A stretch of DNA of 64,000 nt, taken from NCBI GenBank assembly GCA_964016885.1, contig OZ024746.1, positions 87,854,001-87,918,000 of the forward strand, given 5' to 3'. Below the pieces are notes generated by a model that saw only the letters and a program-made list of their open reading frames with translations, searched no databases and was not told where the DNA came from. Shown here piece by piece: positions 7,205 to 63,904 of this stretch. Source of the stretch: Eledone cirrhosa. Its lineage: Eukaryota. The position numbers and the translations under genes were made by a program. Position 1 is the first letter of the stretch. Every line of letters begins with the position of its first letter.

Positions 7205-7316
7205 ATAGGAACCAGTAAGACCCCGACAGCTGAGCTCAACCCGTTTCGACGGCTAATTCTGGAATTAGCCGTCGAAACGGCTTGAGCTCAGCTGTCGGGG
7301 TCTTACTGGTTCCTAT
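7205..7316. repeat. Fold-back palindrome of the 3' half of the 7650-7743 HHR; direct copy resumes at 7636
   Basis: ataggaacc...ggctaatt-ctgg-aattagcc...ggttcctat, with one mismatch between arms. Confidence 0.95.
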
Positions 7317-7649
7317 ATATATATATATGTATATATATATATATATATATGTATATATATATATATATATATATATATATTTATATATATCTATATATAC
7401 ATATATATATCTATATATACATATATAGACATATATAGACATATATATATATACATATATATATATATATACATATATATATATATATATATATATATAT
7501 ATATATATATATATATATATATATATATATATATATACATATATATATATATATATATATATATATATATATATATATATATATATATATACATATATAT
7601 ATACACACATATATATATATATATATATATATATATAGGAACCAGTAAG

Positions 7650-7743
7650 ACCCCGACAGCTGAGCTCAAGCCGTTTCGACGGCTAATTCTGGACTAAATG
7701 AAAATTTATCCTCGTATTTAAATAGCCGATCTTCTCAAGGGGT
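7650..7743 (-). ncRNA. Type I hammerhead ribozyme, U3-A8 core variant
   Basis: Minus strand reads acccc UUGAGAA gaucggcua..(long loop)..uagccguc GAAA c-ggcuugagcucagcu-g UC ggggu. Stem I acccc/ggggu, palindromic stem III, GUC triplet. Confidence 0.7.
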
Positions 7744-8815
7744 AATTCCATATATGGTCAAAGTGATTGTCAAAAATCAGTAGTAATTCTGTGGTTGCAA
7801 ATTAGTAGGGGAGATGGTGGCTAAACCTGCCAGTAGGAGAAAGAGGGGAGGGGGTGGAGTAGACCCAATCAAGCGTTGGTAGTGCCAGCTACAGCTGGGC
7901 ATGAGGTCAAAGAAGATACAGGGGAGGGGGAGGGGGAGGAAGTCGGAACGGTAGGTAGAACAATGGGGGGTAGAAATAGGAAAAAAAAAAAAAAAAAAAA
8001 AAAATACTGAGAGTGAAGAAAGGCAAATAAGTGTAAAGAAAAGTAAAGTAAATTAAATTCTACGACCTAGGTGTCAGGCTATTGTTAGGCGAGAATAAAA
8101 TAAAGAAAGAAAGAAAGAAGTAAAAAAATATAAATAAATGAATAAATAAGGAAATAAGTAAGAGAACTAGGTGGGACGGATTAAGCAAAGACCCTTTTAA
8201 GAGGTATAAGTACGTAAATGATACGGTGACGGGTCAACAAAAGGGGCCAAAATACTAAAGAGACTACCACGAAATAAACAATAAAGGTTTCCATCCCGGG
8301 CCAGCAACGACCCAGTGCAGCAAAGTGAACTTGTACGAGATAATAATTCTGAGTCCCGAGAAAAATATATACTAATGCTAACTCTAAAAGATCTAAAACA
8401 AGCTACATGAAAGTTCGTACGAAATAAAGGTAGAAAACGGAGAAATAAATTCAGAATCCACCCCGCCCAGAATATATATATATATATATATATATATATA
8501 TATATATATATATATATATATACATATATATATACACACATATATATATATATATATATATATATATATATATATATATATATATACATATATATATATA
8601 TATATATACATATATATATATACATATATATATATATATATATATATATATACATATATATATATACACATATATATATATATATATATATATACACATA
8701 TATATATATATATATATACACACATATATATATATATATATATATATATATATATATATATATATATATATATATATATATATATATATATATATACATA
8801 TATATATATACACAT

Positions 8816-9470
8816 ATGTTCTATTTACCCTTGTGTTCTAAGATAGAACACAAGGGTAAATTAGAGAACATAGAAATAAAAATAGAATCCACACACAGAA
8901 AAGATGCAATGTTTAGGCAAATTACAGAGGCAGTAAGCATAAAAGAATTACAACCAAAATTAAATAGAAAATATGAGTGGAACAGCAACATCACAACTTA
9001 CAATTAAGGACAAAATGAAAACACACACACAAATAGAACAAACAACCAACCAACAACATGTAAATAAATGAACACAAACACACACAGACACCCGGATGTG
9101 GCGCATGCGCAAACTGAGCACACAACACACACACAGAAACAAAATGGCGTAGGACAGAAGAAAGGAAAGGCACAGAAACAAAGAAAGGAATCCCCAGTCA
9201 CTGAGAGGTCACAGAGTGTGTGACGAAAGGACTATGACTATATATAAACAACTACCTGGTTGTGGAACCAACCAACCAACCAACCAACCAGAAATTTATA
9301 AGTTTGTAGATTTTTAAATTTATAAATTTATAAATATATAATAAATTAAAGTGAAAGCAATTGGTGCGTGTGTTTCTTATTGGCAACATGACCCTCCCAA
9401 AGTATAACAATATCGGTTTCAACACACGATTTCAGATAAAGAATCTTGCTAAACAAATTCAGAAACGAAA
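8816..9470 (+). mobile_element. 3' end of a Penelope-like element (GIY-YIG C-terminus plus HHR-bearing pLTR), called family E here
   Basis: ORF tail [21 protein letters not shown] resembles a PLE endonuclease C-terminus. HHR-like motif at 9196-9239. Flanked by (TA)n. Homologous to 21278-21581, 26270-26650 and 28544-28921. Confidence 0.7.
9196..9239 (+). ncRNA. Minimal type I HHR-like motif (family E; core one A shorter than the other copies)
   Basis: aguca CUGAGAG gucaca gagug ugugac GAAA ggac UA ugacu. Confidence 0.5.
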
Positions 9471-62393: not shown

Positions 62394-63281
62394 GATATAT
62401 ATATATATATATATATATGATGCAGTGAGGATGTAGGGCTGATCAAATTTGTGACATATTCATCAGATTCTTTATAAAATATATATTTCGATTTAAAGTA
62501 TTCATATTTCGTTAAAACATATTTATCCATGTGATATATCAAAGGGAAATAACTCATAGTATAATTGTGTAATACGTGTAATTTATACGTTTGTGTCTCT
62601 TTGGTCGGTTTTAAAAAAATATTGTATGGCCACATAATTTAATTGCGGTGGAGTATGTACAAGAAAGAACATGTATCGTGTTATGTGGTATGCAAGAAAT
62701 TTTGAAGTCACATATTATAGACGTTGTAGTATATTATGTGGAGAGCAACATATATTTTTCATAAAAGGGATATCTACTTGACTAAAACCTTTTCGCCCCA
62801 AATACATTATCACGAATATATATATATATAATATAAACAGATTAAATTCAAGCAAAGAATTGCAGCTTTCAGCTTATCGAGCCCTCCTCGGATATTAGTC
62901 TTAACATTTCTGATTAGTTTATATATATACATATACATACTTATATATATATATATATATATATATATATATATATATATATATATATATATATATATAT
63001 ATATATATATATATAGTAATAATAATAATAATAATAATAATAAATTTGAAGACTAAAATCCAAATAGGGCTCGATAAGGATAAATATATATCAATTATAT
63101 AAGAACCGTAGAGCAAATATTTATTAAAATAACAGATTGAAGTTTAAGCAAAGAATCTCTGCTTTCACCCTTAACGGGATATTCTGAAACTAACAAAGTC
63201 AATCTGTAAACGCAGAAGTGGATATGTCAAACAACGTTGCAACCTGTGGAAGACAGGAAGACGATACTTAGGTTCGTGGAA

Positions 63282-63535
63282 ACGTTCCCTGGCAAAGATC
63301 GGGAAAAAACGAATATAATACGTCATTGACGGTGAAAAACAATTACGCGCAAAGACAGAACCGCGTTTATGGTATAAAAGAAGTCGTAGACTAATGTTCT
63401 CTTAGGTGGTTCATAGAGACGTTCTCTGGCAATGAACGAAAAAAACGAAGATAATACGTCATATGTGGAGCGTGGAGAACAATTGCACGCAAAGACAAAA
63501 CCACGTAAATGGTATAGCAGAAGTCGTAGACTAAA
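63282..63535. repeat. Diverged ~137-bp tandem duplication
   Basis: acgtt..ctggcaa..aaaaaacgaa.ataatacgtcat..aacaatt..gcaaagaca..agaagtcgtagactaa occurs twice (63282 and 63419). Confidence 0.75.
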
Positions 63536-63770
63536 ATTCTAACTAGGGAACCGAATGAATCTCCGCTTCAGAGTAAGAATAAAGTAAATAAAATACAATA
63601 CAGAGGTAATAGAAATTAAATAAATACATACACGCATGCAAATACGTACATACACAAGCATACGAGAAAACACTTGTCATAGGTATACAAAACCACGGAC
63701 TTCCAATGGAAAGTTCGGCCCTTCAGAAATCATTTTCCCTTACATAGGACATATAGTCCTACAGTCGGTG

Positions 63771-63904
63771 TTGAGTGGTGTTAAGACAATTAAATTGCAT
63801 TGGGTACAGAACTCAAACTTGATTTCGGGGATATATTTATATATCCCCGAAATCAAGTTTGAGTTCTGTACCCAATGTAATTTAATTGTCTTAACACCAC
63901 TCAA
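63771..63904. repeat. 134-bp near-perfect palindrome
   Basis: ttgagtggtg...ggggatatat-tt-atatatcccc...caccactcaa, with one mismatch. Confidence 0.95.

Follow-up and report, generated by a model that had tools for sequence, protein, structure and literature searches.

A bias of Penelope-like elements (PLEs) towards head-to-head insertions with palindromic junctions was already stated in 2013 and was read as self-priming on an antisense template (PMC3846280), and the tail at one end of such insertions has been ascribed to resolution by the endonuclease (PMC8557442). A short palindromic helix III has been described for the hammerhead ribozymes (HHRs) of metazoan PLEs (PMC4209133). How the second end of an insertion is completed is stated as open (PMC11167929; PMC8557442). 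For another PLE, it has been found in vitro that both target strands are nicked and extended and that the reverse transcriptase (RT) starts from sense RNA at two sites a tail apart; uncleaved RNA is the main template, a dimer is predicted and the later steps are left open (PMC11167929).

This study concerns a 64,000-nucleotide stretch of the AT-rich, 3.0-Gb genome of Eledone cirrhosa (contig OZ024746.1, C6:87854001-87918000; hereafter the window). An earlier reading of its letters alone (the sequence-only reading) had listed seven fold-back junctions, and inverted repeats were found at all seven sites, centred at 7260, 24760/24798, 27586/27623, 42540, 58143, 60819 and 63837. Six had been counted as independent; five are left once 63837 is set aside and 27586 is taken as a duplicate of 24760. 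Structure, polarity, tail and target of these insertions are known PLE features and the layout is not new. The pairs are probably insertions of PLE 3' ends into (TA)n tracts in which both target strands each primed a cDNA and the cDNA ends were then end-joined.

Ribozyme-bearing units and their polarity

Hammerhead motifs were sought with a descriptor of the type-I HHR (stem I, CTGANGA, stem II, GAAA, a short stem III and NUH), written because no Rfam hammerhead family was seen among the matches listed: the family was absent among the best 150 of 203 window matches, and no hammerhead match was obtained at gathering score in six loci. The descriptor returned 19 motifs in the window, against 0.12 in Markov control sequences. 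In an unselected sample of 100 evenly spaced 10-kb stretches of the genome (1 Mb), it found 72 full HHRs (3, 0 and 2 in the controls), and 203 sites held at least the HHR 3' half. The family labels F10, F19, F80 and F83 were coined in the present analysis, and L-numbers (e.g. L143, L312) denote fetched genomic loci.

In the window, the descriptor placed full HHRs at 23757, 24067, 24377, 24687, 27512, 41949, 59980 and 60440 on the minus strand and at 24910, 27735, 43091, 61197, 61657 and 62119 on the plus strand; most window motifs have a short palindromic helix III. Full HHRs flank the junctions at 24760, 27586, 42540 and 60818, minus at the left and plus at the right. The junction at 58143 holds the GAAA half of the full HHR found at 45730 (-), and that at 7260 the GAAA half from a parent (7637-7790, -) whose fold is a three-way junction. 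Since the core of this F83 parent is non-canonical (TTGAGAAGA or CTGAGAAG) in every long copy shown, its motif is termed HHR-like only. Six of the seven palindromes thus sit on HHR-bearing PLE ends, 63837 being the exception. The sequence-only reading, which had put an HHR or its GAAA half on every junction with a left-minus, right-plus polarity, stands for these six as regards polarity and as regards a full motif or GAAA half, with the 7260 motif reduced to HHR-like; it falls at 63837, which has no parent and no assignable ribozyme.

The same polarity prevails outside the window. The 208 inverted-repeat clusters of the 1-Mb sample comprised 42 head-to-head HHR pairs, four tail-to-tail pairs and 162 without such a pair, and with shared arms removed the tally was 41 head-to-head against 4 tail-to-tail (p ~1e-8), far from the 50:50 that would have told against the sequence-only reading. 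Of the four tail-to-tail pairs, three have an arm in common with a head-to-head pair, and the last (L114) has the look of two insertions lying side by side; adjacent insertions may also account for a small number of the 41 head-to-head pairs (L038 6561/7611). The two tail-to-tail HHR pairs in the window, 7274+/7677- and 26407+/28786-, went unlisted in the sequence-only reading and are likewise neighbours or secondary. A count of adjacent motifs independent of the repeat caller gave 40 head-to-head, 12 tail-to-tail and 15 same-strand pairs.

Palindromes are also enriched on HHR units, as had been anticipated: 82 of the 203 HHR 3'-half sites belong to head-to-head pairs, and 31 of 89 short-centred clusters carry an HHR pair of the library. 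Among the other 58 short-centred clusters, GAAA words point more often outward in 24, inward in 7 and equally both ways in 27. Both the polarity bias and the enrichment are real; extrapolated to 3.0 Gb, 41 head-to-head pairs per Mb would amount to roughly 120,000. Such polarity follows, however, from any scheme with element 3' ends at both outer ends and does not single out snap-back, that is, a nascent cDNA folding back to prime its own second strand, for which the sequence-only reading had argued from a chance of 1/64. The polarity behind that argument is genuine, but it does not discriminate between mechanisms.

The identification of the units as PLE or retrozyme 3' ends with HHRs is supported. 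Upstream of the F10 end (window 8838-9470, 26407), an open reading frame (ORF) in L260 carries YVDD, a CxxC linker and a GIY-YIG-like segment (motifs by eye), and its Atlas neighbours carry HTH_animal, GIY-YIG and RVT_1 at 0.94-0.97; from the CxxC linker as described in PMC8557442, F10 appears to be Neptune-like. Upstream of the F80 end (42540), ORFs in L312 carry YRDD and a GIY-YIG-like segment, and an autonomous element with RT, a GIY-YIG-like segment and the F80 3' end occurs in L311/L312. No significant Pfam match was obtained for the F10 and F80 ORFs, and a PDB search gave no match. ORFs of this type are tied to F10 and F80 only, out of a set that also includes F83, F19 and the 310- and 460-bp units. 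The 310- and 460-bp arrays consist of tandem units, each with a complete type-I HHR, as in non-LTR (long terminal repeat) retrozymes; the only ORF overlapping the 460-bp array had no Pfam match. A different PLE with Pfam RVT_1 and GIY-YIG matches lies inserted within an F80 arm (L317:1841-4902).

The features that mark endonuclease-containing PLEs were found: an ORF with RT followed by a GIY-YIG-like segment upstream of the HHR end, a type-I or minimal HHR with palindromic helix III, a head-to-head inverted truncated copy, an optional tail at one end and a (TA)n target. Most arm ends are followed by TA runs, which bears out the earlier proposal of insertion at (TA)n, and TA runs stand on both sides in 30 of 30 loci of the 7260 junction.

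Two 3' ends, one tail per pair

Each family has two fixed 3' ends a tail apart, the tail being 75 nucleotides (nt) in F83, 85-88 in F19, 57 in F10, about 77 in F80, 26 in the 310-bp unit and 60 in the 460-bp unit. One long and one short end were combined in all 29 adjacent pairs from the random stretches, which cover six families. The same rule holds in 165 of 167 F83, F19 and F10 junctions, many of them from query-selected loci; the remaining two bear both tails, and tail-less pairs number zero. It also holds in all 17 scorable primary junctions of the 310-bp unit (20 loci, of which two run off the locus and one is 27586) and in all 11 scorable F80 pairs. Beyond the window, the 460-bp family is represented by incidental copies only, as a genome search with this unit gave no match, probably owing to the filter on common words.

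The lengths of the two arms are free of each other. In 49 unselected junctions, scored from BLAST ends that are uncertain by a few nt, the arm extending further 5' is the tail-less one in 24 and the tail-bearing one in 10, the two agreeing within 2 nt in 15. The exact 7260 junction recurs at no fewer than 40 loci with the tail on either arm, namely on the spacer arm at 18 of 30 loci and on the other arm at 12. Among 12 F80 pairs scored by reading, ten of which were picked as opposite-strand neighbours, the tail-less arm is longer in seven and the tail arm in five, the excess of the tail-less arm reaching about 3.7 kb in L312, a searched locus (L314 is marginal). At 60818 in the window, the right arm without a tail measures 1566 nt and the left arm with the tail 1179 nt. 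By arithmetic, four of the 17 tandem 310-bp junctions (L282, L286, L288 and L293) fit neither direction of fold-back.

It was also observed that 14 short-end arms have as head-to-head partner nothing but a tail, whole or partial, with fewer than 10 nt shared and no palindrome; six come from the random stretches, one from the window (45633-45891) and seven from search loci. The window case was added here to the junctions listed earlier, as was the fold-back at 8815-8862. Lone short-end copies with (TA)n at the 5' side occur in L041, L071, L074 and L040, so that a short end can form without a tailed partner. Matches between the two flanks were inverted in 5 and direct in 8 of 136 loci, against 0 and 1 of 150 shuffled pairs. 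Interrupted (TA)n flanks are mirrored across the insertion in L005, L002, L010 and L023 (and in L143), and the direct repeats in 8 of 136 loci resemble target duplications. A run-over of the second strand into the flank was considered for the inverted matches and set aside, the cases being too few and the loci mostly lacking a second tail.

How the pairs may arise

The simplest scheme that combines this end anatomy with the in vitro findings (PMC11167929) is double priming, in which both strands of the (TA)n target would be nicked, the nick in the top strand priming an antisense copy at one start site and that in the bottom strand at the other. The two primings may be concerted on one RNA or take place on RNAs of one source. 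Each cDNA would stop on its own, often in a family-specific zone; the cDNA 3' ends would be joined by host end-joining through 0-4 nt of microhomology, bluntly or after a brief abortive fold-back, and the host would fill in the complementary strands. The palindrome would then be the overlap of two antisense copies, with the HHR only marking orientation. Head-to-head polarity follows from such a scheme by necessity, and it also yields one tail per pair, free asymmetry and tail-only cases. We consider it about evenly balanced whether the process takes the concerted form, in which both strands of (TA)n are nicked by an RT-endonuclease dimer that begins two cDNAs on a single RNA, each at its own fixed site, with a tail between the two; both insertion ends would then be primed and no second strand made by the element would be needed. 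If so, a single step, which would have left on the order of 100,000 palindromes in this genome, would show itself in three ways, as the tail, the inverted pseudo-long terminal repeat (pLTR) and the palindromic junction.

Junctions unselected for their centre numbered 108, of which 63 were resolved: 10 with at least 2 nt of microhomology, 6 with 1 nt, 9 blunt and 38 with extra bases, although some of these 38 calls arise from the lack of the right parent variant. Over all resolved junctions, microhomology of at least 2 nt (10 of 63) is not above chance (16-21% under the null). The microhomologies reported earlier, AC at 24760 and GGCA/TGCC at 60818, are present as described. Copies of nearby sequence at junctions are typical of polymerase-theta joining, and 13 of the 108 junctions hold a copy of at least 7 nt of nearby arm sequence, direct or inverted. 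A turn at the natural stem II hairpin was rejected by eye, as the junctions mostly lack its loop and 5' strand.

The 5' ends cluster by family. In F83, 99 of 120 lie at -128 to -139, the upper edge of this zone being partly set by divergence of the reference, and in F19, 27 of 46 lie at -250 to -259; those of F10 are broad. No peak was found at the HHR cleavage site, where about one end each fell among 120, 46 and 50. A TATA-like TATTTAAA stands 29 nt upstream of an initiator-like TTAGT within stem/loop II of the HHR, where the F83 5' ends cluster. The TATA-like word occurs in the window (7637-7745, -), L035, L100, L204 and L215 and is not kept in L036, L118 and L212, and F19 has no such word at -30. 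If the F83 site is a transcription start, its RNA would be missing the ribozyme's 5' half and would be incapable of self-cleavage in cis.

Arms of one locus differ on average by 1.5 positions in F83 (n=50) and 0.9 in F19 (n=21), compared with 3.6 and 2.2 between loci, so that the two arms share a subfamily in these families. Variants private to both arms were few, numbering 1, 3 and 1 in the three families, against 36, 10 and 41 found in one arm. In the 460-bp array, the test for variants in mirror order found private variants only.

Several observations weigh against double priming. F10 arms are no closer within a locus than copies across loci (3.0 vs 3.2, n=17). Among the 25 resolved junctions free of inserts, 10 show at least 2 nt of microhomology where about 19% would be expected by chance. 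The 60818 junction, located at a 4-nt hairpin, would agree with snap-back given the later gain of one unit, and L143:1693-2105 bears tails on both arms. In F10 loci selected by their tail, the tail arm exceeds the other in length in 7 of 8, as it does in 4 of 4 that differ by at least 30 nt. True fold-backs unanchored at a family 3' end do exist, with 2 in the random DNA against 28 anchored junctions of the same three families. The short ends lie in TA-like motifs and could stem from nuclease cuts or, in a second strand, from jumps to (TA)n, along the lines suggested for the tail (PMC8557442). Genomic copies may also have changed after insertion, and random asymmetry and inserts would likewise be expected from a symmetric palindrome with a centre cut and rejoined at a later time. 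Nor do the present data explain why two RTs should always choose different start sites.

Several of these points are gathered in the main rival, a snap-back with later remodelling, which we judge unlikely. One cDNA started from the long end would fold back, its second strand would be cut or would jump at the TA-like short end, and the centre would later be lost unevenly. Long palindromes do lose their centres unevenly, and the scheme accounts for the polarity, the one-tail rule and the shared subfamily of the arms. The TA-like short ends, the hairpin microhomology at 60818, the longer tail arm in 7 of 8 selected F10 loci and the ascription of the tail to endonuclease resolution (PMC8557442) speak for it as well. 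The tail-only partners, however, would require one-sided deletions past the whole palindrome into the tail in 14 cases, and up to 3.7 kb would have to be removed from one arm only. Nor would loss from a symmetric centre be expected to favour the arm without a tail (24 vs 10); both configurations are already present among young, near-identical copies, and lone short-end copies are poorly explained.

Simple cDNA snap-back with no later change, put forward by the sequence-only reading, is very improbable as the main route. It agrees with the 41:4 polarity, with the spacer on the tail arm at 7260 and 42540, and with unanchored short fold-backs, short inverted inserts at junctions and the two tails of L143. 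As the template in snap-back is the tail arm, this arm must reach at least as far 5' as its copy, yet the tail lies on the shorter arm in 24 of 34 asymmetric unselected junctions, in 12 of 30 loci of the 7260 junction and in 7 of 12 F80 pairs. The two arms should moreover always overlap, which leaves no place for the 14 tail-only partners; second arms stop at one fixed site rather than running through the tail, and microhomology of at least 2 nt does not exceed chance over all resolved junctions (10 of 63), but does so among the insert-free ones (10 of 25). Within the window, 7260 and 42540 are compatible with it and 24760 only formally, whereas 58143 (by a few nt) and 45800 are not, and 60818 is so only with the later gain of a unit. 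Simple snap-back is thus contradicted as the main route and kept as a minor one. Short true fold-backs form a minor class, seen at 8815-8862 in the window, which is a snap-back-type signature, and in L120, L081, L255 and L274. The rare pair with both tails in L143 is a candidate for a complete snap-back or a duplication at the DNA level.

Self-priming on an antisense RNA template, the published reading of the bias (PMC3846280), gives head-to-head palindromes and is in our estimate just as improbable as simple snap-back. It leaves unexplained why there should be two fixed sense 3' ends, each on its own arm, and why tail-only partners occur, and priming from sense RNA at two sites has been shown in vitro (PMC11167929).

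The amplification of palindromic master elements, fold-back or similar to miniature inverted-repeat transposable elements (MITEs), as units is slightly less probable still. The recurrence of the exact 7260 junction speaks for it, but the tail at this junction occurs on either arm (18:12), which overturned the candidacy of 7260 as an amplified master; position and sequence vary between most junctions, and masters with both tails are rare (2 of 167).

As regards the reads, restriction site-associated DNA (RAD) reads mostly stop at 7258/7263 inside the 7260 junction, probably at a restriction site, and the best contig extends fewer than 31 letters to either side. No read record bridges the 42517 junction, and contigs reaching there continue with other sequence, apparently that of the parent; the read sets X1-X3 are a single sample, which may be the source individual. 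Fold-back chimeras of amplification, sequencing or assembly, which the lack of any single junction proven by reads might seem to favour, can on indirect evidence be given almost no credence, since they are expected at random places with identical arms and the arms seen here end at family-specific sites with one tail per pair on many contigs, differ by substitutions, and at 24760 and 27586 differ at private sites.

Other features of the window

The features of the window are collected in Table 1. The arms at 27586 and 24760 have two private variants in common, and both 27586 arms end at the long end; the former is probably a later template-switch duplication of the latter. The duplication around it mirrors about 2 kb of flank (25603-27586 vs 27661-29588), including the F10 HHR at 26407+/28786-, and resembles an inverted triplication by template switching in TA repeats. 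For the palindrome at 63837, the sole genome match was itself in a search that skips very common words; no parent was found in the fetched loci, and no TA run at either end. Just to its left, 63271-63700 belongs to a repeat family with an internal duplication of 137-140 bp, also found in L039, L071, L122 and L286, with an inverted pair in L039. No inverted partner was found for the longer F83 copy at 7635..8471.

Table 1. Arms, tandem units and fold-backs located in the window (positions in the window; a point marks features given without strand)
Feature	Position	Strand	Remark
F83 arm with 75-nt tail (long 3' end), (TA)n outside	7127..7263	-	locus L186
F83 arm, short 3' end, GAAA half of HHR-like motif, (TA)n outside	7262..7316	+	
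Longer F83 copy, short end, full HHR-like fold	7635..8471	-	5' limit set by eye at (TA)n run
Short fold-back, arm of about 25 nt, unanchored at family 3' end, at 5' end of F10 copy	8815..8862	.	
F10 copy with tail (3' end of Neptune-like PLE)	8838..9470	+	
310-bp tandem HHR unit x3.8 (retrozyme-type), short end, phase 148	23588..24761	-	
310-bp unit x1.1 with 74-nt spacer, long end, phase 174	24760..25105	+	
Secondary inverted duplication round second copy of the 24760 junction (27317-27930)	25603..29588	.	
F80 arm, HHR at 41949, short 3' end, (TA)n outside	41864..42520	-	
F80 arm with spacer, HHR at 43091, tail	42517..43250	+	
F19 arm, full HHR at 45730, short 3' end	45633..45799	-	
Tail-only inverted partner of the 45633 arm; head-to-head join, no palindrome	45801..45891	+	coordinates approximate
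F19 arm with 85-nt tail, GAAA half of HHR	57987..58144	-	locus L216
F19 arm, short 3' end, carries spacer	58141..58215	+	
460-bp tandem HHR unit x2.6, long 3' end (phase 312), 12-nt spacer, 4-nt hairpin microhomology	59647..60828	-	
460-bp tandem HHR unit x3.4, short 3' end (phase 252), longer than left arm	60825..62390	+	
Palindrome with 67-bp arms, single copy, not assigned to the system	63771..63904	.	

The stretch 16395-17050 (-) holds an older copy of the 460-bp HHR family, two units long and about 80% identical, with no inverted partner seen nearby. Within its 3' region, F80 harbours the 3' tail of a different HHR family (42147-42242, 42774-42869); this nested tail is present in 24 of 24 loci examined, and F80 is a composite PLE. 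The 433-residue open frame at 53356-54654 (+) matches histidine phosphatase branch 2 (E 6e-34) and is probably host gene sequence, and two open frames with RVT_1 matches at 47668-49017 (-) are probably a broken long interspersed nuclear element (LINE). Dispersed repeats of 110-200 bp with no HHR by the descriptor, possibly short interspersed nuclear elements (SINEs), occur at 14292-15045, 17470-17589, 19194-19390, 30443-30644, 37885-37991, 43971-44197 and 50644-51072. The open frames at 17682-18383 (+) and 36031-36792 (-), of 234 and 254 residues, have no Pfam match; the first contains a YIG word.

Comparison with described elements

The inverted pLTRs of endonuclease PLEs, as far as PMC8557442 and PMC3846280 set them out, agree with the present insertions in the head-to-head 5' copy, the palindromic junctions, the tail at one end, the HHR in the pLTR, the (TA)n target and the combination of RT with a C-terminal GIY-YIG-like domain. 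The published tail measures 30-40 nt, compared with 26-90 nt here (PMC8557442; PMC3846280). The one-tail rule, the independent arm lengths and the tail-only partners have been counted in this study; in those papers the structure is read as antisense self-priming or endonuclease resolution (PMC8557442; PMC3846280).

PAc, a Poseidon element of the green anole (PMC11167929), shares with the families described here two 3' end points a tail apart and AT-rich targets. In the present families, too, cDNAs run through the HHR cleavage site, where 5' ends form no peak, which is in line with the use of uncleaved RNA as template. The main text of that paper shows nicking and extension of both strands without a link to inverted insertions, the word 'inverted' appearing once, for a blocking group (PMC11167929). 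In the open-access literature, which leaves most subscription papers and the older Penelope work outside, no paper was found that ties the inverted ends of PLEs to double priming. The genome holds very many young insertions whose ends tell the models apart, and with the one-tail rule, independent truncation and tail-only partners, double priming becomes testable in the in vitro assay that already exists. Should it hold true, the tail, the inverted pLTR and the nicking of both strands would be linked, and a large source of genomic palindromes, and possibly of double-stranded RNA, would have been named.

Non-LTR retrozymes (10.64898/2026.07.22.740005; PMC4209133) resemble the 310- and 460-bp arrays in their tandem units, minimal type-I HHR and palindromic helix III. 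Unlike plain retrozymes, these arrays are arranged head-to-head and obey the two-end rule seen in the PLE families, which suggests PLE machinery; for neither unit was an autonomous partner identified.

Twin priming of LINE-1 (L1), reportedly set out by Ostertag and Kazazian in 2001, is said to let both target ends prime a cDNA, the two being joined so that an inverted orientation results. The tail-only cases found here look like such an L1 5' inversion. The second primer of L1 anneals internally at sites that vary, and in a minority of insertions the result is inversion with little duplication. The present insertions differ in their fixed second site, in copies that usually overlap to make a palindrome and in being a common form. 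L1 twin priming, which is also mentioned in 10.1101/2024.12.14.628481, is nevertheless the closest precedent for double priming.

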